64,000 nucleotides of DNA from contig JBIKWJ010000001.1 in assembly GCA_044356325.1 (NCBI GenBank), positions 56,305-120,304 of the forward strand. Direction: 5' to 3'. Below, piece by piece: positions 2,395-64,000 of this stretch (positions are counted from its first letter, which is position 1; each line of letters starts with the position of its first letter). Both the position numbers and the translations under genes were made by a program. The notes beneath the pieces were generated by a model. That model did no database searches. It was not told the origin of the DNA and was given only the letters and a program-made list of their open reading frames with translations. Source of the DNA: Minisyncoccia bacterium. Lineage in GTDB: Bacteria; Patescibacteriota; Minisyncoccia; SW-4-49-11.

Positions 2395-4224
2395 ATGAGT
2401 GAAAAATTATCTCTAGATACCAAAAGACATACCGGTGCACATATTTTAGCAGCTGCAGTATATGAAATGTTCCCAGAAGCTCAATTTGGAGTAGGTCCTA
2501 CTACTGAGAATGGATTTTATTATGATATTCTCCTTCCTCGCACTCTTATCCCAGAGGATTTGCCTTTGCTTGAGGATAAGATGAAAGCTATTATTAAGGC
2601 AAATTTACCCGTTGAGAGAGAAGAAATGGCTATTGATGATGCTATTGATCATTTCCGACAGGCAGGGCAATTATTGAAGGGTGAATTATTACAAGATCTC
2701 AAAACTCATGGGACTACCAATTTCTCTGAAATATATGGAGAAGGTGAAGCTGTCCCTCACGAGAATGAAGTGGCGACAGTAAGTGTATATAAAATTGGGA
2801 ACTTTGTAGATTTATGTCGTGGCCCTCACATTGAGACTACGGGTCAATTAGATATTACGGCTTTTAGTCTAGATAGTATATCTGCTTCCTATTTCCGTGG
2901 AGATCAAAGTCGTGAGAGTATGCAGAGAATTTATGGAATATTATTCCATTCCAAAAAGGATTTAAAAGAATTTTTGCATAATAGAGAAGAAGCCAAAAAG
3001 CGAGATCATCGTGTATTAGGGAAAAGTTTAGGTTTATTTACTTTCTCAGAACTCGTAGGTTCAGGGCTTCCTCTTTATACTCCTGCTGGAACAACTCTCA
3101 AAAATAATATTGCAGGATTATTACGGCAAATTAGTAAAAAATATGGCGCTGAAGAAGTTTCTATTCCTCATATTGCTAAAAGAGAGCTTTATGAAATTAG
3201 TGGTCATGCTCAAAAGTTTTCAGAAGAACTCTTAACGGTACATAGTCATTATCAGCAAGATTTTGTATTAAAACCCGTAAATTGTCCTCATCATACACAA
3301 CTATTTGCTTCTGAGCCTCGTAGTTATCGCGATTTGCCTATTCGGTATATTGAATCCACTATGCAATATCGAGATGAAAAGCCAGGACAAATTGGAGGAC
3401 TTACTCGTACTCGAGGATTTACCGTAGATGATGGACATACTTTCTTAGCTGTCAGCCAGATTAAAGATGAGGTGAATTTACTTATCAAAACTATTTCAGA
3501 CTTCTATAACAGTTTTGGATTATGGGAGAATAAATGGGTTTCTCTTTCAGTAAGAGATTATAGTGATTTATCTAAATATACTGGAGTACCTGAGGATTGG
3601 GATAAGGCTGAGGAAATGCTAGAGTCTATTGCTGAGGAAAATGGTCTACAAGCCCAAAAATGCGAAGGAGAGGCTGCTATTTATGGACCAAAGCTCGATT
3701 TTATGTTCTATGATGCTCTTGGCAATGAGAGACAACTTGCGACAATACAATTAGACTTTGCAACTCCTAAACGATTTGAACTCGAATATATTGATGAGGA
3801 AGGAAATGCACAAACTCCGGTGATGATACATAGAGCTATTCTTGGTTCTTATGAACGATTCCTTGCTATTCTGATTGAGCATTATGCTGGGCGATTTCCG
3901 TATTGGCTAGCTCCAACTCAAGTGTCGGTATTAACCGTAAATGATTCAGATGAAGTCTCTGAATATACCAAGAATATTATTGAACAATTAGATGAAGTGG
4001 TATTATCTTCCCCTCTTAAATATAATGAGCTACGGTATATTGTAGATAATAGCTCTGAATCTCTTGGCAAAAAAATTCGTAATGCAGAATTACAAAAAAT
4101 CCCTGTGATTATTATTGTCGGTCCAAAAGATATAGAGGCGAGTCAAGTAAGTGTCCGCACTCATAGCGGTGAGAGCAAAATTGCTTTGTCTGAATTACAA
4201 AAATTCCTAGAAAATTTTGAATAA
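2395..4224 (+). CDS. thrS: Threonyl-tRNA synthetase.
   Basis: 609 aa. Contains the class II ThrRS motifs HRVLGKSLGLF and FELEYIDEEGN...PVMIHRAILGSYERF, plus a C-terminal anticodon-binding region. Confidence 0.9.
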   Translation: MSEKLSLDTKRHTGAHILAAAVYEMFPEAQFGVGPTTENGFYYDILLPRTLIPEDLPLLEDKMKAIIKANLPVEREEMAIDDAIDHFRQAGQLLKGELLQDLKTHGTTNFSEIYGEGEAVPHENEVATVSVYKIGNFVDLCRGPHIETTGQLDITAFSLDSISASYFRGDQSRESMQRIYGILFHSKKDLKEFLHNREEAKKRDHRVLGKSLGLFTFSELVGSGLPLYTPAGTTLKNNIAGLLRQISKKYGAEEVSIPHIAKRELYEISGHAQKFSEELLTVHSHYQQDFVLKPVNCPHHTQLFASEPRSYRDLPIRYIESTMQYRDEKPGQIGGLTRTRGFTVDDGHTFLAVSQIKDEVNLLIKTISDFYNSFGLWENKWVSLSVRDYSDLSKYTGVPEDWDKAEEMLESIAEENGLQAQKCEGEAAIYGPKLDFMFYDALGNERQLATIQLDFATPKRFELEYIDEEGNAQTPVMIHRAILGSYERFLAILIEHYAGRFPYWLAPTQVSVLTVNDSDEVSEYTKNIIEQLDEVVLSSPLKYNELRYIVDNSSESLGKKIRNAELQKIPVIIIVGPKDIEASQVSVRTHSGESKIALSELQKFLENFE

Positions 4225-14040: not shown

Positions 14041-14460
14041 TGAATAAGGTGAGAAAAATCCTAGGTAAACTAGGAGTTATGTAGGGGCGACCTTGTAGTC
14101 GCCTGCACTATTATGTCCTCCTTTCTACATACGGTAGACAAGTGGAGGGGGTGGCCGTCAGGCCAGAGGTGGACTAAGCTAAATTCCCCTCTTGAGGGGT
14201 ACCGTCGTTAGATGGTGGGGTGGAATATTTTTGTAACTTGAGTTTGTGCCCCCCTTCGCCTGCCTGCGGTAGGCAGGGAGGGGGAAGCCTGAAAGACGGG
14301 GGTGGATAGAATCAAAACTAAAGTATATTTGATAATCATATTGAATTTGAGAATATAGGTTTTTAATTATCCACACCCACCGCAAGCGGTTCCCCCTCTC
14401 CAAAGAGGGACATAAGACAGGCAACTGAAAGGTCACCCCTACGAAATGCATAATTTACAA
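14041..14460. repeat. GC-rich interspersed repeat, copy A (composite and degenerate MITE-like element).
   Basis: GC-rich insert in AT-rich DNA. It shares modules with the other copies: gtaggggcgacctt, ggtggccgtcaggccagaggtgga, cctgcctgcggtaggcaggga, ttcccctcttgaggggtaccgtcg and aaggtcacccctac. A hairpin ccccgtaatttacgggg plus T-run follows at 14476-14505. Confidence 0.6.
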
Positions 14461-14503
14461 TTGCCAACTACACCCCACCCCGTAATTTACGGGGTGTTTT
14501 TCT

Positions 14504-18667: not shown

Positions 18668-18675
18668 TTAGAAAA

Positions 18676-18806
18676 GCTCAGTCCACACCCGTCACTTCGT
18701 GCCACCCTCGCCAGCGAGGCCTGCCTGCGGTAGGCAGGGACAGTTATTTATGTCCTCCCTTGGGGGAGGTGTCCCTCCCATATTAATATGGGAGGGACGG
18801 AGGAGA
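18676..18806. repeat. GC-rich interspersed repeat, fragment B (inverted relative to copy D).
   Basis: gctcagtccacaccc...cgccagcgagg...cctgcctgcggtaggcagggacag...gggagggacggaggag is the reverse complement of the internal part of copy D (52650-52800). Confidence 0.55.
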
Positions 18807-37663: not shown

Positions 37664-39577
37664 TTATCTCCGAAACTTGATTGATCTTCCTTGTGGCATA
37701 TTGTTTTTTGTAGGTTCTTTAGGTACCATGAGATTTGATTTTACTTCAGATAATAATTCATCTAAAAGTCCATTTACACTTAATTTTTCTTCTTGGCTTG
37801 AGACATGTAAATCTTTTAGGAATTTTTCTTTGATTAAATATTCTGATTCTCCATAAGCAGAAGTTGATCTACTAAATACCTCTTTTAATTTTTTTGCCAT
37901 TATGGGATTTACATATTCTACGGGCTCAGTAGTAGGGATATCTTGCTTCACTTCTGGAATAACTTCTTCTTTTTTCTCCTCTACTTGTGTGGCAGTATCA
38001 GCGAGTTGGGTGGATACAGGAGGAACAATCTCCTCCTTAGGTATAGGATGATTTTCTATTTTCTCATCTATTTTGGGAGTAGCATCTATAGACTGTAATG
38101 GTAGTATAGGAGCGCTATTAGTCGTATCTTTAGATATAGGATTTTCTTGCTCTGATTTTGGATAAACTATAGGATTAGGTTTATTTGATGCATTATATGA
38201 CTTTGATTTATCATTATAGGGTTTAGAATAAGCTCTAGATTTGTTATCTCTGTCTGATGAAACTTTTGCTTGGGTCTCTGAAGATTTTTTAGTATCTATA
38301 TTCTCAATATGAGCTCCTCTCAGTGAAGATTTAACATTTCCATATGTTTGACGAGAAAATTCAATGATTTTGTCCCTATTGGATATCAACTCTGGCTCTG
38401 GATCAGGTAATGTATCCGCACTAAAAGGCTGACTTGTAGCTCCATCTATCATAAGTTTCAAATATACTTTCCATTTTGGAAGATTAACCAAATCCTCAAT
38501 AGTAAGAACCGGGCTAAATTCTCTCTCCATAAATTCAGCATCAGCAGCCCCAATCCTAAATACAATAGTAGTTCCCACATTTCCAAATACGGCACCTCTT
38601 ACAATTTCAGATAATTGCTCTACATATTGATGAGCTAATATAAGACTTAATCGATATTTGCGAGCTTCTGATAATATTTCCGCAAAAGAATCCGTAGAGA
38701 AATTTTGAAACTCATCAATATAGGCATAAAAATCTTGTCGCTCTTCTTCTGGTATATCAACACGACTCATAGCTGCAAGTTGCATTTTGGTAATCATCAT
38801 CGCTCCGAGTAATTGAGCTCCCCCCTCACCCACAGCTCCTTTAGAAAGATTCATAATCAAAATTTTCTTTTGATCCATAATTTCACGCAAATTAAAAGAA
38901 GATTTAGCCTGTCCAACAATATTACGTATAAGAGGAGAAGAAGTAAATTGTCCTACTTTATTTTGAATTGGTGAAATAGCCTCAACCAATAATTTATCCG
39001 TATATCCATCAAATTCATTAAGCCAAAATTGCTTTAATACAGGATCATGCATTTTATACACAATATTAGCTCGGAAATTCTTATCTACGAGAATACGCAT
39101 AATATCAAGCAAAGTACTTTCTTCATTTTCAAGCAAAGTCAATATGGTATTACGAAGAATATATTCAAGTCTTGGCCCCCAAGAATCAGCCCAAATTTTC
39201 TTAAATACTCCTACCAAACCATCGGATACAATATGTCTTTGATTTTCTGGCACATCACCAAGCACATTAAAAGCAATAGGAAATTCTAAATCTTGTGGAT
39301 TAAAATACACCACATCTTTTATACGATGTTCTGGAATATAATCAAGCAAGGCATCTGCTATATCTCCATGGGGATCAACAAAAGCAAACCCTGAACCATT
39401 TCTAATATCAGACACCGCCATATTGAGAAGTAATGAGGTTTTACCCATACCTGTTTTTCCAATAATATGCATATGTCGACGCCTATCATCTCGCTTAATA
39501 CCAAAAAGTCTTCCCTGACCATGAAAATTAGTCTTGGCAATAATGGTGATATCTTTATTTGTTTGATTTTCACTCAT
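37664..39577 (-). CDS. Soluble VirD4/TraG/TraD-like coupling-protein ATPase with a long low-complexity C-terminal tail.
   Basis: 637 aa. Walker A is HMHIIGKTGMGKTSLL and Walker B is YAYIDEFQNF. It also has the TraG/VirD4-type RKYRLSLILAHQYVEQL motif. It has no N-terminal transmembrane helices. The C-terminal roughly 230 aa is Ser/Lys/Pro/Asn-rich. Confidence 0.6.
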   Translation of the reverse strand: MSENQTNKDITIIAKTNFHGQGRLFGIKRDDRRRHMHIIGKTGMGKTSLLLNMAVSDIRNGSGFAFVDPHGDIADALLDYIPEHRIKDVVYFNPQDLEFPIAFNVLGDVPENQRHIVSDGLVGVFKKIWADSWGPRLEYILRNTILTLLENEESTLLDIMRILVDKNFRANIVYKMHDPVLKQFWLNEFDGYTDKLLVEAISPIQNKVGQFTSSPLIRNIVGQAKSSFNLREIMDQKKILIMNLSKGAVGEGGAQLLGAMMITKMQLAAMSRVDIPEEERQDFYAYIDEFQNFSTDSFAEILSEARKYRLSLILAHQYVEQLSEIVRGAVFGNVGTTIVFRIGAADAEFMEREFSPVLTIEDLVNLPKWKVYLKLMIDGATSQPFSADTLPDPEPELISNRDKIIEFSRQTYGNVKSSLRGAHIENIDTKKSSETQAKVSSDRDNKSRAYSKPYNDKSKSYNASNKPNPIVYPKSEQENPISKDTTNSAPILPLQSIDATPKIDEKIENHPIPKEEIVPPVSTQLADTATQVEEKKEEVIPEVKQDIPTTEPVEYVNPIMAKKLKEVFSRSTSAYGESEYLIKEKFLKDLHVSSQEEKLSVNGLLDELLSEVKSNLMVPKEPTKNNMPQGRSIKFRR

Positions 39578-40922: not shown

Positions 40923-42065
40923 TTACAAAGTTGTCTTTTGTAACAAATCAATAAGCCTAGTATTAAGCTCTTTGCCAGCTGTATGTATATCCTTGTCTGA
41001 GGCATAACTATATACCAAGACTCCTTCATCATATTCACCATCCAAATCTGAAAGAAAATGAGCCATATCAAGTTTAGGGAAATCTAGATACCCTTGTTTG
41101 GTACTATTCCCATTATCAAGGAGAATATGAAGTCCCAAATTATCACTCGGTAAATAAGATAGTATTGTTCGGTATATCAGAGGTATATCCTTAGCCTTAG
41201 TATGAGTTTTAGAAAAATCATGGGGAAAAAGCTTAGAATACGCGTAGCGATGTTTTACTCCCTGAATAGTGATTTCCATCCACTCTAAATGAGCTAGAAT
41301 ACGGCCAATAAGTAATCTCTGACTATCTGTAATAAGACTATTAAGAGCATTATCAATAGCGGTATAATTAGCTCCTAATTCTCTCATCTCAATAATTGCT
41401 TTATCTACTGCTAATGTACGAGATGATAATAATAAAGAGAATAACAGGGCATTACAAATATTTTCATTCCAAGCATTGGGATAATACGTTTTAATATAGT
41501 CAATAATAATCTCAGCATTAGAATTATAGGCTGAATTATATATTGTTTTTTCAGAATAAGGATGCTTTATATCAAAAGCTGATATAGCAAGAGAAGGTGT
41601 ATCAATCAATATATGGGGATAATCTGTAAAATATTGCCCTAATTGAGTCCAGTTTTGTGTATCTAATGTTACTACCAAATCATAAGAATATTTGCCAGGA
41701 GTAATAGTAACTAATTCTGATTGGAATTTTTCTGAAGGTGAATTGAGATAAATTCTAATCTCAGAATCCGTTCTATCATATTTGAGAGATTCAATAGGAT
41801 ATTTGGTAGTATCAATAGAAATTACTGACTCTACAGAACCTTGTAATATTGAGGTTATCATACTAGTATCAATCATAGTCAATACTTGCTGTATATGAGT
41901 ATATGAGGATATAATACTCACTTGTTTTCCCTCAGATTGTAATAAAGAAGCTAAGGCTAGGGCTGAGCCCAATATATGTATTCCATGAATTTCTGGAATC
42001 GGAATTACAATTGACTGAGCATTTTGTAATGTCTCATGCATTAATGTCAAATCTGATACAGCCAT
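40923..42065 (-). CDS. DHH-phosphoesterase-superfamily-like protein (degenerate, probably non-catalytic).
   Basis: 380 aa. The N-terminal ...GIHILGSALALASLLQSEGKQVSII... resembles the NrnA/DHH motif I region, but the canonical DHH and GGGH motifs are not evident. Confidence 0.3.
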   Translation of the reverse strand: MAVSDLTLMHETLQNAQSIVIPIPEIHGIHILGSALALASLLQSEGKQVSIISSYTHIQQVLTMIDTSMITSILQGSVESVISIDTTKYPIESLKYDRTDSEIRIYLNSPSEKFQSELVTITPGKYSYDLVVTLDTQNWTQLGQYFTDYPHILIDTPSLAISAFDIKHPYSEKTIYNSAYNSNAEIIIDYIKTYYPNAWNENICNALLFSLLLSSRTLAVDKAIIEMRELGANYTAIDNALNSLITDSQRLLIGRILAHLEWMEITIQGVKHRYAYSKLFPHDFSKTHTKAKDIPLIYRTILSYLPSDNLGLHILLDNGNSTKQGYLDFPKLDMAHFLSDLDGEYDEGVLVYSYASDKDIHTAGKELNTRLIDLLQKTTL

Positions 42066-42123
42066 ATAATATCCCTATATAAAGACTTATTATACCAAAA
42101 TACTTATATATAGTCAAAAATAT

Positions 42124-42417
42124 TTGTGAGATGGGGAGATAGTAGACCAAACAGATTACTATACATTGCTAGCCTAAGGACCCTAGCTTGTCACAAAAAT
42201 TGTCCTCCTTTGCCTGCCTGCGGTAGGCAGGGAGGAGGTGGCCGTCAGGCCGGAGGTGGATAGAGTTCAAGTTTGTATATTATCCACCCCCGCCTTTCAG
42301 ACTCCCCCCTCCAAAGGGGGATAAAAGTAATAATTCTTTTGTTACGACAACATATGCTACCTTAAGGTCGCCCCTACACAAATCTCATTTTGTCTATGAT
42401 GTATCTCATCTTATTCA
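42124..42417. repeat. GC-rich MITE-like element, copy C.
   Basis: Nearly identical to copy E at 57708-58003. The right TIR is ...gtaggggcgacctt...tgtctatgatgtatctcatcttattca and the left TIR is tttgtgagatggggagatagtagacc. The core contains ttgcctgcctgcggtaggcagggaggaggtggccgtcaggccggaggtgga. Confidence 0.7.
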
Positions 42418-42427
42418 AGACAATCTC

Positions 42428-42745
42428 CTAAGCTTGCCTTAATAAATCTCTTATTCCCTGTATAAATTCAGATAATTCTTTATCTAAATTTACATTTTGT
42501 ATAGTGTTCTCTGAATCCAATGCAATTTGTATTATGGATTGATTATTAATAGTAATATATATATATCGTTCTCTTACAAATAATGCCCGAGGATATGATA
42601 TCAGAACAGGAATATAATTGTTTTCTGTATTTACAAAATTAATGATAAAAGATCCATATTGCAATAATTCTTGTGCAATAAATTCATAGCTATCTATATG
42701 ATTATAGGCTTCTCCATAATGTGGTGAGAGATTTGCTGAATTCAT
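42428..42745 (-). CDS. Hypothetical protein.
   Basis: 105 aa with no recognisable family. It is the last gene of a three-gene minus-strand cluster. Confidence 0.4.
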   Translation of the reverse strand: MNSANLSPHYGEAYNHIDSYEFIAQELLQYGSFIINFVNTENNYIPVLISYPRALFVRERYIYITINNQSIIQIALDSENTIQNVNLDKELSEFIQGIRDLLRQA

Positions 42746-50640: not shown

Positions 50641-51366
50641 TTATGTCTTTAGAATAAATACTTCTGTCAATTGATAAAAATTAATAGGATAATCAACAAT
50701 AATGCGATGGAATAAATCACCTTCTGAAATATCTTTAATTTTGCCCGCTAATATTCCTGCGGGTATTGTCTCAGTTGGAGTAGTAATAATATTTTGATCT
50801 TTTACAATAGAATCTAATTTAGGTATAGAATCAACCTCTAAAACATTACCATATTCTGATTTCAAAATTCCTTGAGAGGGGCTATCTTTTTGTATTTGAA
50901 TTGCAATTTTACTATTTGCATCATTTAGGAATTGAATTTTACTGGAAAACTCAGATACTTCTTTCACTTGCCCCACCAAATACCCGAGATAAATAGCTGG
51001 TTGATTTACTCGAACTCCTTCTTTAGATCCCACCGCAACAGTGGCGGAGCTACGAGTAAAATCATTATCAAATGTTACAATTTTCGCCTGTATGGGAGTA
51101 ATTCCTGTATCATTCTTGGTTATAATAGCACTTTTTAATAATTCATTTTCAGATTTTAAATATAATAAACTTGCCACTTCTGATTCAAGAGAAGTAATTT
51201 TTGCTTGTAATTGTTCTGGAGATTCATTGAACTGATTTTGTGCAAAAACAGGTTTAATGAGAGGTAATCTTTGCACAATTTTAGGAATAGAGCCTGTTAA
51301 TACAAGAGCTCCTAGTATTAGGAGTATAATCCCCGCTAATATGAGTGATATAGGCTGTTTTCTCAT
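50641..51366 (-). CDS. mreC: Rod shape-determining protein MreC.
   Basis: 241 aa with an N-terminal transmembrane helix, a coiled coil and then a beta domain (...GSKEGVRVNQPAIYLGYLVGQVKEV...). Confidence 0.75.
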   Translation of the reverse strand: MRKQPISLILAGIILLILGALVLTGSIPKIVQRLPLIKPVFAQNQFNESPEQLQAKITSLESEVASLLYLKSENELLKSAIITKNDTGITPIQAKIVTFDNDFTRSSATVAVGSKEGVRVNQPAIYLGYLVGQVKEVSEFSSKIQFLNDANSKIAIQIQKDSPSQGILKSEYGNVLEVDSIPKLDSIVKDQNIITTPTETIPAGILAGKIKDISEGDLFHRIIVDYPINFYQLTEVFILKT

Positions 51367-52466
51367 ATATAACTTTTACCTTTACGCTCAATATCCAATG
51401 GTATTAATAACTCTTTGAGAGAATCTATATCCTCTAATACCATACCAGTACCCCTTACTACTACAGTGAGTGGGTCTGAGGCAATCAAAGTTGGTACTCG
51501 AGTAATATTAGTAATCAAAATATCTAATCCTTTGAGTAATGCCCCCCCTCCAGCGAGAATAATTCCTCTTTCCATAATATCTCCGATAAGTTCCGGAGGT
51601 GTTTCTTCAATAGAGGTTTTGACGGTATTTGCAATTTGCATAATAGAATTTGCCATAGCTTTTCTAATATCAGTATCATTAACAATAATTTCTTTTGGAA
51701 GTCCAGATATAATATCTCTTCCTTTAATTCCCATTTCGAGGGGCTCACTAAGAGTATAGGCAGATCCAATATTCATTTTGACATTCTCAGCTGTACGCTC
51801 TCCAATAGCCAATTTATAATGTGTTCGAATATACCGAATAATATCACTATTCAATTTATCTCCCGCCACTCTCAAACTTTTGGATATAACCACGCCCCCA
51901 AGAGACATAACAGCAATTTCGGTAGTACCTCCTCCAATATCTACAATAATACTTCCTGTAGCTTCTTGAATAGGAAGACGAGCCCCAATAGCAGCCGCAA
52001 TTGGCTCTTCAATCAAATATACTTCTCGTACTCCTGCATTACGGGTCGCATCATATACCGCTCGCTTTTCCACTTCAGTAACCCCTGATGGAATACCCAC
52101 TACCACTCGAGTTTTCCACTGATGAAAAAACCCCCTCTGTGTAACTTTATTAATAAAGTATTTCAGCATTTGCTCTGTTACTTCAAAGTCTGATACCACT
52201 CCATTAACGAGTGGGCGTGTAGCTACGATATGAGCTGGGGTTCTCCCCACCATAGTCTTGGCATCTTGTCCAATAGCAAGCACTTGCCCACTTTTTTGAT
52301 TAATAGCCACAACTGATGGTTCATTGATGACAATACCTCGATTTTTGACATAAACCAAGGTATTAGCTGTCCCCAAGTCAATACCAATATCTTGTCCAAA
52401 TGAGCTCCATATACCCGACAATACTTTCAATTGAGATTTTGATTCAGTCTTTCTCTTCATATACAT
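51363..52466 (-). CDS. mreB: Rod shape-determining protein MreB (actin homolog).
   Basis: 367 aa with GIDLGTANTLVYV and actin-fold phosphate motifs. Confidence 0.9.
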   Translation of the reverse strand: MYMKRKTESKSQLKVLSGIWSSFGQDIGIDLGTANTLVYVKNRGIVINEPSVVAINQKSGQVLAIGQDAKTMVGRTPAHIVATRPLVNGVVSDFEVTEQMLKYFINKVTQRGFFHQWKTRVVVGIPSGVTEVEKRAVYDATRNAGVREVYLIEEPIAAAIGARLPIQEATGSIIVDIGGGTTEIAVMSLGGVVISKSLRVAGDKLNSDIIRYIRTHYKLAIGERTAENVKMNIGSAYTLSEPLEMGIKGRDIISGLPKEIIVNDTDIRKAMANSIMQIANTVKTSIEETPPELIGDIMERGIILAGGGALLKGLDILITNITRVPTLIASDPLTVVVRGTGMVLEDIDSLKELLIPLDIERKGKSYI

Positions 52467-52597
52467 TATATTGTATATGATATTGAGTATTATGTAAACC
52501 TATATATTTTATACTATGGGAAACACTATATTTTGTTCTTATTTATATTATAATTAAAGTTCTAATATATTGATTTTATGATGAAACAGAGTTTGAA

Positions 52598-53009
52598 TAA
52601 GATGAGATACATCGTAGACAAAATGAGATTTGTGTAGGGGTGACCTTACAGTCGCCCGCAAGTCCTCCTCCGTCCCCTCCTATACTTTAGTTTGGGAGGG
52701 GACACCTCCCCCAAGGGAGGACAATAAAACTGTCCCTCGCTGGGCGAGGGTGTCGACGAAGTCGACGGGTGTGGACTGAGCTAATTCCCCTCATTGAGGG
52801 GTGTATCATTAAAAGGCCTATATTCTAAAATATAAATTTATTTTGAACCTATCCACCCTCCCCCTACGGGTACTCCCTCCTAAGGGAGACAAAAGCTCAA
52901 GCTCAAATATATCACAGGCGACTGATAGGGTGCCCCTACATAAGAACAATAGTGGAGGGATAAACCCTCCGCTACGAAAGTATAATTTGTCTACGATCTC
53001 CTCATCTTA
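52598..53009. repeat. GC-rich MITE-like element, copy D (the best-preserved copy, with roughly 27 bp TIRs).
   Basis: Left end tgaataagatgagatacatcgtagacaaaatgagatttgtgtaggggtgacctt. The right end, reverse-complemented, is tgtataagatgaggagatcgtagacaaattatac. The element is about 55% GC in a roughly 30% GC genome. Confidence 0.7.
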
Positions 53010-53086
53010 TACAGAGTTTTGACAAATAAAAAAAGCCCCACACGAATGCAGGGTTCAAAGAGCTTTAGCTGTGAATAGCAGGCAGC

Positions 53087-53488
53087 TTATGGAGTTTGTG
53101 GGAAATATCTATACTCATATCTTAGGTCAACTACATATACTGCATAATACTGATTCACTTTTGAATCAGAAATTTGCAGAATTCTAGCTAAATTAGAAGG
53201 TTCCTTGAGTTCTGCGGATATTGTACTAGAACCCGCCTTAAGATAGTGTACCCACACATAACAAACTTGTTCTCCGCAAAACTTTCTTAGCTCTGTTATA
53301 GTCATAGGCTTAGTATATGCCCATCCCTCAGGTGGTTCAAGATATCCTTCTTCCCATCCCTGAACAAAGAAGCTATCTTCCTGGGATGGTAAGAACGTAG
53401 GTTCTTGAAAGAGAAGGCTACATCCACCCAAGAGAAGTAGGCCAGCTACTAAGGCAGCCCGAACAAGACTAGAAAGTGAAGTTCTCAA
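53087..53488 (-). CDS. Small lipoprotein with elevated GC content (about 42%).
   Basis: 133 aa with a signal peptide plus lipobox (LLLLGGCS). Confidence 0.45.
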   Translation of the reverse strand: MRTSLSSLVRAALVAGLLLLGGCSLLFQEPTFLPSQEDSFFVQGWEEGYLEPPEGWAYTKPMTITELRKFCGEQVCYVWVHYLKAGSSTISAELKEPSNLARILQISDSKVNQYYAVYVVDLRYEYRYFPQTP

Positions 53489-56643: not shown

Positions 56644-57651
56644 TTATGTTAAAGTTTGAGTTGTGGGAGGGATTTTACCAAAATATTCATAACAAAGTTT
56701 CGTCACCATACGACCTTTTGGAGTTCTTTGTAATAATCCCTGTCTCATAAGGAATGGCTCATAAATCTCCTCTATGGTCACAGTCTCCTCAGCGGTTGAA
56801 GCCGCCAAAGTCGAGAGCCCCACTGGTCCCCCATTAAATATATTCATAATAGTCTCTAAGATTTTACGGTCTCCTGACTCTAGCCCTTGCGCATCCACAT
56901 CTAAGAGCTCAAAAGTCTCATCTATCACTGACCTATTGATAATTCCATTATTATGTACTTCTGCATAATCTCTCACTCGTTTGAGGAGGCGATTTGCGAC
57001 ACGCGGAGTATGACGACTTCTAATTGCAATATGGCGATATACTTCTGGTGAATCTGCTTTTACAGATAGAATATTACTAGAACGCTTTAAGATATCAATA
57101 ATATGATCTTGCGTATAAAAATCAAAACTATAAATATTACCAAAACGACTACGGAATGGTCCCGATAGAGACCCAAATTTGGTTGTGGCACCAATCAGAG
57201 TAAATTTCGGCAAATCTAGTCTTAGAGTTCGAGCAGAAGGTCCCTTACCGACAATAATATCCAAGACAAAATCCTCCATAGCCGAATATAATATTTCCTC
57301 TAATGTCTTAGACAAACGATGAATTTCATCAATAAACAGAATATCTCCCGCCTCTATATTGGTAAGAATTGAGGCTAAGTCCCCAGCCTTCTCGAGAGCA
57401 GGCCCAGAGGTAACTTTTAAATTAGACCCCAGATACTTGGAAATAAGATAAGCCAAACTCGTCTTACCAAGTCCAGGAGGACCATAGAATAAAAGATGAT
57501 CCAAGGGCTCTCCTCGCTTCTGAGCTGCCTGAATAGAAATGGAAAGGTTTTTTTTAATTTGATCTTGCCCAATATACTCTTCAAAAGTCTGTGGTCGCAA
57601 ACTCTGATCTATACTACTATCTTCCTGTATTTCTTTTGATGATGTAATCAT
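56644..57651 (-). CDS. ruvB: Holliday junction branch-migration helicase RuvB.
   Basis: 335 aa with ...FEEYIGQDQIKKNL...LLFYGPPGLGKTSLA.... Confidence 0.9.
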   Translation of the reverse strand: MITSSKEIQEDSSIDQSLRPQTFEEYIGQDQIKKNLSISIQAAQKRGEPLDHLLFYGPPGLGKTSLAYLISKYLGSNLKVTSGPALEKAGDLASILTNIEAGDILFIDEIHRLSKTLEEILYSAMEDFVLDIIVGKGPSARTLRLDLPKFTLIGATTKFGSLSGPFRSRFGNIYSFDFYTQDHIIDILKRSSNILSVKADSPEVYRHIAIRSRHTPRVANRLLKRVRDYAEVHNNGIINRSVIDETFELLDVDAQGLESGDRKILETIMNIFNGGPVGLSTLAASTAEETVTIEEIYEPFLMRQGLLQRTPKGRMVTKLCYEYFGKIPPTTQTLT

Positions 57652-57707
57652 AGATTACGATACTTATATACTATTATTATAGTATATTTTTAGAGTTTTG
57701 TATAGAT

Positions 57708-58003
57708 CTGTATGAGATGAGGAGATGGTAGACACAACAGATTACTATACATTACTAGCCTAGGGTCCCTAGCTTGTCACAAAAATTGTCCTCCTTTGCC
57801 TGCCTGCGGTAGGCAGGGAGGAGGTGGCCGTCAGGCCGAAGGTGGATAGAGTTCAAGTCTTTATCTTATCCACCCCTGCCTTTCAGGCTTCCCCCTCCTA
57901 AGGGGGACAAAAGTAATAATTCTTTTGTTACGACAATATATGCAACTGTAAGGTCACCCCTACACAAATCTAATCTTGTCTACGATGTATCTCATCTTAT
58001 TCA
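57708..58003. repeat. GC-rich MITE-like element, copy E.
   Basis: Left TIR ctgtatgagatgaggagatggtagaca. The right end ...tgtctacgatgtatctcatcttattca is the reverse complement of the copy D left TIR. The internal sequence is almost identical to copy C. It begins 4 nt after the stop of the 58007 gene and ends 57 nt upstream of the ruvB start. Confidence 0.7.
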
Positions 58004-58006
58004 TAT

Positions 58007-58834
58007 CTATTCTTTTAATTGTATCTCGTATATTTGTGGCCAGAGTTTACCAGTTATGAATACGGTATTGGTACTGGCTTTATAGGCGATACCATTTAAC
58101 TGAGCTATATTGGGGTCTTTCTCTCGTATTTGTGAGACGATATCGGACAAATCTAACACCCCTATTATTTCACCATTATCAGGATTAATTTTGACAATTT
58201 GATTAGTCTGACAAATATTGGCGTAGATAAATCCTTTGATATACTCAAGCTCATTGAGAGAATACTGAGCTATATCTCCTCTTTTTACTTCGAGAGTTTT
58301 CACTACTTGGAAATTCTCGGGGCTTAAATAGGTCAATTTATTAGTCCCATCGCTCATAATGAGATTAATCCCATCATTCGTCAATCCCCAACCTTCAGCA
58401 CTGGAGTAAGTAAAAGTATTGATCTCTTTAAATGTCTTCGTATCATAGACAAATCCTTTTTGATTCTTATAGGTGAGCTGATATATTTTATTATTGAGTA
58501 TAGTACTTCCCTCTCCAAAATAGATGTTACGGTCAAGTTCAGCTTTGATATCGATATTACCTGTCTGTAAATCTAATGGACCTAATACGGATTGCGTTTG
58601 AGGCAAATAATCTGGAGAGCCAGTACTTTCATACAGAGTGTCTCCATCAAAAAATAATCCCTGAGTATATGAGTTAATATTATGAGAATATTGCTTAATT
58701 ATAGTATAAGATAATGTCTTTCTTGTAGGTATTTGATACTCTAAATATCCTCTATAGCTAATAATACCCCAAAGTGTACAAATAAAAAATATAGCAAGAA
58801 GAATAGCTATTCTTTTGCGATACCAATATGTCAT
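58007..58834 (-). CDS. Glutaminyl-peptide cyclotransferase (plant/bacterial-type beta-propeller QC), membrane-anchored.
   Basis: 275 aa with ...YTQGLFFDGDTLYESTG... and ...FGEGSTILNNKIYQLTYKNQKGFVYD... motifs of the Glu_cyclase_2 family. Confidence 0.6.
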   Translation of the reverse strand: MTYWYRKRIAILLAIFFICTLWGIISYRGYLEYQIPTRKTLSYTIIKQYSHNINSYTQGLFFDGDTLYESTGSPDYLPQTQSVLGPLDLQTGNIDIKAELDRNIYFGEGSTILNNKIYQLTYKNQKGFVYDTKTFKEINTFTYSSAEGWGLTNDGINLIMSDGTNKLTYLSPENFQVVKTLEVKRGDIAQYSLNELEYIKGFIYANICQTNQIVKINPDNGEIIGVLDLSDIVSQIREKDPNIAQLNGIAYKASTNTVFITGKLWPQIYEIQLKE

Positions 58835-59387: not shown

Positions 59388-59404
59388 ATAATTTGTTATT
59401 AGTT

Positions 59405-59732
59405 GGCTTTATCATTCTCTAAATGCTTTGTTCGAATGCAGGGACTCGGTCACAAGTAATTTACCTGACGGTAAATTCTCGCTACCCCGTCTCGCCGTGT
59501 TCGCCTTGCGCATAGCACAAACTCACACATGGCTCCGACTTTCTCGCCCTGACTAAAGCCAATAAATTGGCTTTATCATTCTCTCGCTTCGCTGTTCGAA
59601 TGCAGGGACTCGGTCACAAGTAATTTACCTGACGGTAAATTCTCGCTACCCCGTCTCGCCGTGTTCGCCTTGCGCATAGCACAAACTCACACATGGCTCC
59701 GACTTTCTCGCCCTGACTAAAGCCAATAAATT
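59405..59732 (-). repeat. Two tandem copies of a 164 bp unit. Each unit contains an 18 nt duplicate of the tRNA-Gln 3' end plus a 9 bp-stem hairpin.
   Basis: Unit 1 (59405-59568) and unit 2 (59569-59732) are identical except for the 10 nt aaatgctttg versus cgcttcgctg. Each contains ttcgaatgcagggactcg, which is the tRNA-Gln 3' end. A third partial unit merges into the real tRNA. Confidence 0.7.
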
Positions 59733-59758
59733 GGCTTTATCATTCTCTCGCTTCGCTG

Positions 59759-59829
59759 TTCGAATGCAGGGACTCGAACCCCAATTGCTGGTGCCAGAAA
59801 CCAGTGTCCTACCGTTAGACGACATTCGA
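59759..59829 (-). tRNA. tRNA-Gln (anticodon CTG).
   Basis: Reverse complement is TCGAATGTCGTCTAACGGTAGGACACTGGTTTCTGGCACCAGCAATTGGGGTTCGAGTCCCTGCATTCGAA. It has the U1:A72 pair typical of tRNA-Gln, and the anticodon loop is TTCTGGC. Confidence 0.75.
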
Positions 59830-62059: not shown

Positions 62060-62325
62060 GTGGAATTTTGGTCTTGCAACATTCCCCTCTTGAGGGGTAC
62101 CGTCGGTAGACGGTGGGGTGGAGTATTTTGCAACTTGAATTTCTGTCTCCCTTCCTGCCTACCGCAGGCAGGTGGAGGGAGTACCCGCAAGGGGGAGGGT
62201 GGATAAAGTTTAATCTACAAATCTTATGTAAGAATTTTAATCTAATTATATTGTGCTAGCAATCCACCTCCGGCACGTTGTGCCACCTCCTCCCTGCCTA
62301 CCGCAGGCAGGCAAAGGAGGACAAA
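62060..62325. repeat. GC-rich interspersed repeat, copy G (rearranged, no TIRs).
   Basis: Carries the ttcccctcttgaggggtaccgtcg...ggtggggtggagtatttt module shared with copy A. It has two copies of cctgcctaccgcaggcagg. Its terminal section is the reverse complement of the copy C/E core (ttgtcctcctttgcctgcctgcggtaggcagggaggaggtgg). Confidence 0.55.
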
Positions 62326-62392
62326 ATAAGTATCATTAAAATATCTCCCTTTTGAAAGAATGGCCAGAGGGGGATTTTTTAGCCCCATAATT

Positions 62393-63978: not shown

Positions 63979-64000
63979 CCATATGATGAGTAGAAATAGT

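Follow-up and report, generated by a model that had tools for sequence, protein, structure and literature searches.

Copies of a MITE lie just upstream of genes in the window that we analysed, a stretch of 64,000 nucleotides, and their placement is probably explained by insertion in a fixed orientation, 5 bp ahead of -35 boxes, in a compact genome of the CPR type. The window is AT-rich (~33% GC), and nearly all of its genes lie on the minus strand. A 252,788-nt metagenome contig, Ga0453946_0000001 (JGI 3300042364), contains the window at 100% identity, and the nearest homologues of its RuvB and MreB proteins carry the labels Minisyncoccia, Paceibacterota or Parcubacteria, which makes the source a CPR bacterium. 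The genes named below and the three repeats (copies C, D and E) are as follows.

37664-39577, minus strand: VirD4-like coupling protein (Pfam)
42123..42417, minus strand: MITE copy C, 295 nt, in the same gene-relative orientation as copy E
51363-52466, minus strand: MreB (Pfam)
52594..53013, plus strand: MITE copy D, 420 nt, in the opposite orientation to C and E; its interior has additional GC-rich hairpin modules
53087-53488, minus strand: lipoprotein ORF (lipobox LLGGC)
56644-57651, minus strand: RuvB (Pfam)
57709..58003, minus strand: MITE copy E, 295 nt, 45% GC, running from end B to end A in the gene direction
58007-58834, minus strand: glutaminyl cyclase (Pfam)

A Pfam search with the 380-aa product of gene 40923-42065, which lies downstream of copy C, gave no match; some of its homologues are named nanoRNase/pAp phosphatase by JGI.

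Over 298 nt, copies C and E share 91% identity. The initial annotation had placed copy E between the cyclase stop codon and ruvB, and the measured gaps agree with this: end B lies 3 nt past the cyclase TAG, and end A lies 57 nt from the ruvB ATG. Copy C begins 10 nt past the stop codon of gene 42428-42745, as had been noted, and ends 57 nt, not 59 nt, ahead of the ATG at 42065. The suggested rule that copies sit just after a stop codon and about 57-59 bp before a gene thus holds for E and C and fails for D, an inverted copy whose distances are 127 nt to the mreB ATG and 73 nt to the stop codon of the lipoprotein ORF. Among 13 copies from the window and other genomes, the gap between end B and the stop codon was 0-10 nt in 7, and that between end A and the start codon was 57-78 nt in 8. 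The positions relative to gene ends are therefore far from chance, in other genomes as well, and the suspected non-randomness is real. The downstream genes are mutually unrelated, encoding pilin-like proteins, SAM decarboxylase, ribosomal protein L10, LemA, a glycosyltransferase and tRNA-Pro; since they are so varied and include a tRNA, the essentiality of the genes, which had been pointed out for the window copies, is not the variable that matters.

All three window repeats are bona fide MITEs, that is, non-autonomous TIR transposons, as had been proposed: they have terminal inverted repeats (TIRs), a 5-bp target duplication, no coding capacity and empty orthologous sites. The ends common to all copies are imperfect 28-bp TIRs with TG...CA tips, reading TGT at the start of end A and TGA at the start of end B. 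The end A consensus is TGTAYGAGATGAGGnnATCGTmGACAA, also written TGTAYGAGATGAGG..GTmGACAA, and the end B 28-mer, TGAATAAGATGAGATACATCGTAGACAA, is present in 17 metagenome or MAG loci. Family members were found by an exact 23-mer of end B, which returned 3 loci in species-representative genomes and 14 in metagenomes; complete pairs of end A and end B, 52-505 nt apart, are present in 10 of these 17. Fuzzy searches detected one TIR core per end, and the window-type end B has a partial second AAGATGAGAT 21 nt further in. The TIR stem encloses an interior that is a variable mosaic of GC-rich hairpin modules, ranging from 0 (the 52-nt copy in L012) to ~450 nt.

The target duplication is perfect in copy D and in L001, L013 and L017, each time with a different sequence, and is matched at 4 of 5 positions in L005 and L009. 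It is not recognisable in 7 of the 13 copies, which may be old or recombined. A recombinase "core" in place of a duplication was ruled out, because the 5-mers vary among copies. The terminal features of copies D and E are listed here.

57976..58003, minus strand: end B TIR of copy E, TGAATAAGATGAGATACATCGTAGACAA
57709..57736, plus strand: end A TIR of copy E, TGTATGAGATGAGGAGATGGTAGACACA
58004..58008, minus strand: left part of the decayed target duplication of copy E, AGATA, overlapping the AG of the cyclase TAG (comparison of filled and empty sites)
57705-57708: right remnant of the copy E duplication, GATC (comparison of filled and empty sites)
52589..52593 and 53014-53018, plus strand: target duplication of copy D, GAGTT, a perfect 5-bp repeat

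The copies have no coding capacity: stop-free stretches reach 63-67 codons at most, within hairpin DNA that is GC-rich, and no ORF of at least 60 aa is listed within copy E. No autonomous IS with the same TIRs was found among the 40 loci examined, and scans of viral contigs were empty. The solo-end loci L014, L016, L010 and L015 were checked for an autonomous IS and showed no obvious transposase; the solo end in L014 is next to a 317-aa ORF that, by eye, we take to be VanW-like, L016 has a region that we take to be mutS, and L010 and L015 contain small ORFs. An Rfam search of the whole window at the gathering score gave no match for the element, and one of the element at an E-value threshold gave only chance-level miRNA matches (E ~1); a known structured RNA family was rejected because no Rfam family matched. 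The family of C, D and E is one of non-autonomous DNA transposons of Parcubacteria/CPR genomes.

We compared the promoter regions downstream of the copies with those at orthologous loci. The following promoters were predicted.

57676..57704, minus strand: ruvB promoter TATACA-17-TATAAT (promoter scan), beginning 4 nt beyond end A and found also in L021-L023
42089..42117, minus strand: promoter of gene 40923-42065, TTGACT-17-TATAAT with an extended -10 (TGg), 11/12 matches in the scan, 5 nt beyond end A
52470..52498, minus strand: native mreB promoter TTTACA-17-TACAAT (promoter scan), conserved in L037-L039; given for context, outside the element

Orthologous ruvB loci were obtained through close RuvB homologues. 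In three of them (L021-L023; RuvB 98% identical), the cyclase and ruvB genes are still adjacent, the spacer is 56 nt long and the element is absent. Their sequence reads ...AAAAGAG TAG ATA TATACA-17-TATAAT...ATG, and the window reads ...AAAAGAA TAG ATA [element] GATC TATACA-17-TATAAT...ATG. Similarly, the element is absent from seven loci that encode a protein 88-91% identical to the 380-aa product (L030-L036), where the spacer is 65 nt; these empty sites contain TTGACT or TTGACG-17-TGnTATAAT, with the hexamers conserved and the spacer sequence diverged. The -35 hexamer in the empty sites starts 3 nt (ruvB) or ~12 nt (380-aa gene) past the upstream stop codon. Because the ruvB promoter is present in the empty sites, it predates the element, and the insertion came between the stop codon and the promoter.

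The initial annotation had supposed that the elements donate or displace the promoters of the genes downstream. At both E and C, the sigma-70-type hexamers lie wholly outside the element, within the 57 nt that lead to the ATG. Scans for -35/-10 pairs inside the elements likewise put the predicted ruvB and 380-aa-gene promoters outside E and C, and these promoters are already there in the element-free orthologues (L021-L023 and L030-L036). The predicted promoters at these two sites are native and intact, neither donated nor displaced; that they work as promoters is suggested by their consensus matches, position and conservation. The "57 nt" is simply promoter plus leader.

We then aligned the sequences that flank end A on the outside in 13 independent copies from ~10 contigs; the window supplied 3 of these termini, and metagenome or MAG loci supplied 10. 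All sites, 14 in total, were ascertained through the exact end B 23-mer and hence represent one sub-family. A -35-like hexamer lies 5 nt outside end A, directly past the duplication; the offset is 4 in copy E and its orthologue in L002. The hexamers at end A are TTGACA (six), TTGACT (three), TTGTAA (two), TTCTCA (one) and TTGTAT (one), and copy E has TATACA, one base nearer. Across the 13 termini, the mean match to TTGACA was 4.77/6 at offset 5 and ~1.7 at all other offsets, and the end B termini (n=20) matched at ~1.7, with no -35 signal. A match of at least 5/6 was found at 8 of the 13 end A termini, against a background frequency of 0.006 (binomial P = 2e-15). By eye, a -10-like hexamer follows 16-17 nt further on at 12 of the 13 sites, and a strict criterion for the full -35/-10 pair was passed by 8 of 13, against a background of 0.0022 (P = 8e-19). 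A 14th case, TTTACA-17-TATATT at L040:4186, comes from the same genome beyond the window. Exceptions are the solo end B in L010 and the copy truncated by the locus edge in L003, where end B, not end A, adjoins the -35-like hexamer. The possibility that the TTGACA hexamer is part of the element was rejected, because a variable 5-bp duplication separates it from the TIR and because empty sites contain the hexamer.

Copy D has the hexamer without a promoter.

53019..53024, plus strand: copy D TTGACA hexamer, abutting the end A duplication, with no usable -10 and aimed into the terminator of the lipoprotein ORF

This TTGACA lies in a spacer of ~200 nt. Copy D lies 92 nt ahead of the real mreB promoter, which is conserved and untouched.

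In the mechanism that we propose, an unseen transposase would mobilise the MITEs in trans. Insertion proceeds by a 5-bp staggered cut of the target, and integration would occur in a fixed orientation, such that a TTGACA-like -35 hexamer begins one duplication (5 bp) beyond end A. In these streamlined genomes, a spacer between genes holds barely more than a promoter and a leader, ~56-65 nt, so that the -35 starts 3-12 nt past the stop codon. With so little room between the preceding gene and the -35, an insertion at the upstream edge of the -35 would fall just after the stop codon and ~57 nt before the ATG, and the downstream promoter would be left intact. The TG...CA tips and the 5-bp duplication are features that we take to fit IS3-like or Mu/Tn7-like DDE enzymes. 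The evolutionary rationale is likely that of a safe haven, the sole harmless insertion point where intergenic DNA can barely be spared. It is possible, and we suggest it tentatively, that the transposon homes base-precisely to promoters by reading the -35 box, perhaps through a sigma-region-4-like helix-turn-helix, which would suit ultra-compact CPR genomes.

Random insertion followed by selection, with survivors only between the stop codon and the next -35 box, could yield a similar placement, and the tolerated window is truly narrow, as native gaps between stop codon and -35 are tiny (3 nt for ruvB, ~12 nt for the 380-aa gene); MITEs are in general described just as intergenic (PMC10969869). 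The offset of 5 was held, however, even where the gap on the end B side is 42-367 nt (L001, L004, L005, L009 and L013), the association is restricted to end A, which is not expected from selection for harmlessness, and copy D lies beside a non-promoter TTGACA. From this exact phase despite free spacer beyond end B, the signal at one end only and the position of copy D, we infer that the base-precise association reflects target choice by the transposase, most simply direct reading of TTGACA(A), and we regard selection among random insertions as improbable.

The transposase could instead be tethered by promoter-bound RNA polymerase or a sigma factor, in analogy to Ty3 and TFIIIB. The correctly spaced -10-like hexamers at nearly all end A sites would agree with this, and the tolerated -35 variants (TTGTAA, TTCTCA and TATACA) look more like promoter degeneracy than like a strict binding site. 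On the other hand, copy D, whose duplication is perfect and presumably recent, lies at a TTGACA that has no usable -10 and faces a terminator. Holoenzyme bound to a promoter covers positions -41 to -46, so that access to the insertion point within its footprint would be awkward. Copy D favours direct sequence reading over tethering, although one case is weak evidence; overall, we think tethering unlikely.

Two other forms of targeting were considered for the same sites. A guide-RNA mechanism of the IS110/IS1111 type is unlikely, given the TIRs, the variable 5-bp duplication and targets that share the hexamer alone. Targeting of a mimic of the inverted repeat was suggested by the inner TIR motif GTAGACAA, which resembles TTGACAA; here the geometry does not fit, as the insertion abuts the motif and is not ~22 nt off.

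The palindromic cores had also been described as strong hairpins, and the elements as possibly selected as read-through insulators or terminators. The first part stands, with an RNA fold of -111.5 kcal/mol (z = -6.1) and a DNA fold at z = -4.7. In the gene direction, E and C have a bulged GC-rich hairpin followed after 4 nt by TTTTT, and a scan for the terminator consensus found 2 sites inside D, including a terminator-like one at 52750..52734(-); these features, together with the very stable fold, are what a host-selected barrier to read-through into ruvB and other downstream genes would predict. The same scan, however, found 0 sites in E, and the sole match for C (41970..41954) is outside the element. 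The hairpin with its T-tract is lacking in L001-type copies and is not conserved in other genomes, and the interior modules range so widely in length that some copies have none. Furthermore, relatives manage without a terminator between these gene pairs, as the empty sites illustrate, and in the closest ruvB relatives the element has been cut down to a solo TIR. The second part is thus unsupported, and host selection for insulation or termination is very unlikely; read-through may be affected by the element as a by-product.

The orthologous copies at the ruvB promoter in the window and in L002 differ by a GC mini-hairpin of ~20 nt (CCTGCCTGCGGTAGGCAGG), present in the window at 57798-57817 and absent from the corresponding part of L002 (1405-1415). 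In the window it occupies the loop of a CCTCC/GGAGG hairpin, and it occurs elsewhere in both orientations (62154-62172 and 62293-62311). The hairpins appear to grow through insertion into loops.

Several loci retain only parts of the element. In L018-L020 (RuvB 99% identical), only the 28-nt end B TIR is left, fused to GATC-TATACA; this solo TIR is an internal-deletion remnant. Solo 28-nt TIRs were seen at L014:1492-1519, L015:445-472, L016:147-174, L010:9681-9708, L040:4186-4213 and L018:2916-2943. In five of these (L014, L015, L016, L010 and L040:4186), a -10-like hexamer belonging to the neighbouring gene follows the inner TAGACA of the TIR after 17 nt, a geometry that fits a deletion between the TAGACAA of the TIR and the TTGACAA of the neighbouring promoter. 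In such remnants, element DNA may have taken on the role of the -35 box, which is the only sense in which "donation" could apply, and not for C, D or E. Donation of a promoter by the element to the gene downstream, or displacement of that gene's own promoter, is extremely unlikely: the inner TIR does hold the -35-like TAGACA, a possible -35 after internal deletion, but in the full window copies both hexamers are outside the element and are present in element-free relatives with diverged spacers.

Other arrangements were noted upstream of ruvB. The ruvB-promoter copy in MAG CAZPCB01 (L002:1604-1700) is full length, and the gene upstream of it is not the cyclase. A second copy, on another contig of the same MAG (L003:7880-7921), has next to its end B a sequence that nearly duplicates the flank of the ruvB promoter (TTTGTATATATCTA). 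Rearrangement between copies of the element would explain this, as would a chimeric assembly. Other short hairpin inserts (GGGGATAAG...CTTATCC) lie just upstream of the ruvB -35 at L026:2907-2950 and L018:2891-2915. Small elements seem to have landed at this spot repeatedly.

Elsewhere in the window, GC-rich mosaic hairpin elements without intact TIRs of the family lie at 14041-14470, 62076-62340, 18675-18805 and ~1270-1460. They share the MITE-interior modules GGTGGATA..TATCCACC, CCTGCCTGCGGTAGGCAGG and TTCCCCTCTTGAGGGGTACCGTCG. The element at 14 kb opens with a degenerate end B (TGAATAAGGTGAG), and the module at 1.3 kb is also found as cargo in the long MITE copies of L013, L017 and L009. 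A tRNA-Gln gene (59758-59829, minus strand) is followed by two-and-a-bit tandem repeats of 164 nt that are 95% identical (59398-59829); each repeat opens with the last ~18 nt of the tRNA (GAGTCCCTGCATTCGAAC), and in appearance the array is a reiteration of the att-type junctions that a small integrating element would form. On the same contig, ~6 kb past window position 64000, L040 has ~430 nt of gene-free and GC-richer DNA (~3700-4150). It lies on the strand transcribed from the TTTACA-17-TATATT promoter beside the solo TIR, and its end is marked by a strong hairpin and a T-run (GCCCCGGCATTGCGCCGGGGCTTTTGG). This stretch had no Rfam match at the gathering score and is a candidate for an unannotated structured RNA.

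We compared the family with known mobile elements. Tn7-like elements and the Tn5053/Tn402 "res-hunter" transposons have 5-bp duplications and TG(T)...CA tips; each recognises a site and inserts at a set distance from it, always in the same orientation. They are large, encode TnsB/TniA, an ATPase and a dedicated target selector, and carry several transposase-binding repeats at each end. In the family described here, by comparison, one TIR motif was seen per end, and the recognised site is a generic promoter hexamer rather than a single att or res site. Members of the IS3 family and their MITE derivatives, for instance IS150 and IS911, have TG...CA termini, TIRs of 20-40 bp and duplications of 3-5 bp, and IS911 is able to target sequences that resemble its own ends. 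In likeness to this, the inner TIR motif GT(A/C)GACAA of the MITE resembles the target TTGACAA; insertion adjoins the motif instead of occurring ~22 nt away, which does not fit targeting of such a mimic. We know of no IS3 member that homes to -35 boxes.

The safe-haven strategy, in which a recurring neutral landmark near genes is used in a fixed orientation, is shared with other elements. Class C group II introns insert behind terminators, IS1397/ISKpn1 and IS110/IS1111 in REP or attC sites (for IS110/IS1111, PMC11187229), and Ty3 at Pol III start sites. Their chemistry relies on a ribozyme and RT, on DEDD recombinases with guide RNAs, or on retroviral-type integrases tethered to TFIIIB. To our knowledge, none of these elements uses the bacterial -35 hexamer as its landmark. 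Among MITEs, the Correia elements of Neisseria (CREE/NEMIS) are likewise short, bounded by TIRs, located mostly just upstream of genes and rich in strong hairpins. They carry promoter elements within their own ends and duplicate TA. Here, by contrast, the promoter pre-exists outside the element, 5 bp are duplicated and the distance to the -35 is set with single-base precision.

Correia elements have been discussed in connection with promoters (PMC10969869). The BOX, RUP and SPRITE repeats of Streptococcus pneumoniae are modular and intergenic, with nested hairpin modules, and SPRITE is terminator-like (PMC10969869). Unlike these repeats, which have no reported specificity for promoter edges, the GC-rich modules described here lie inside a MITE bounded by TIRs and target duplications, and the GC content of the genome around them is 33%. 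On target preference, a review from 2024 on the MITEs of prokaryotes covers a general intergenic preference and the internal promoters of Correia elements only (PMC10969869), and IS110/IS1111 elements are site-selective through guide RNAs (PMC11187229). Our search of the literature on -35-targeting IS or MITE elements and on CPR MITEs found no counterpart, which is not proof of absence. The anatomy is that of an ordinary MITE, and the target specificity is unusual and apparently undescribed.

These findings indicate that a constant distance of a repeat upstream of genes need not imply that the repeat carries or disturbs their promoters. In uncultivated CPR bacteria, whose transcription start sites are unmapped, the element ends would flag real promoters. 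The cognate transposase would be a possible tool for inserting cargo just upstream of promoters while sparing them. If the specificity is mechanistic, the generic -35 box would be a new kind of target selection in bacterial transposition, and the family would show how a selfish element can persist where dispensable DNA is almost nil.
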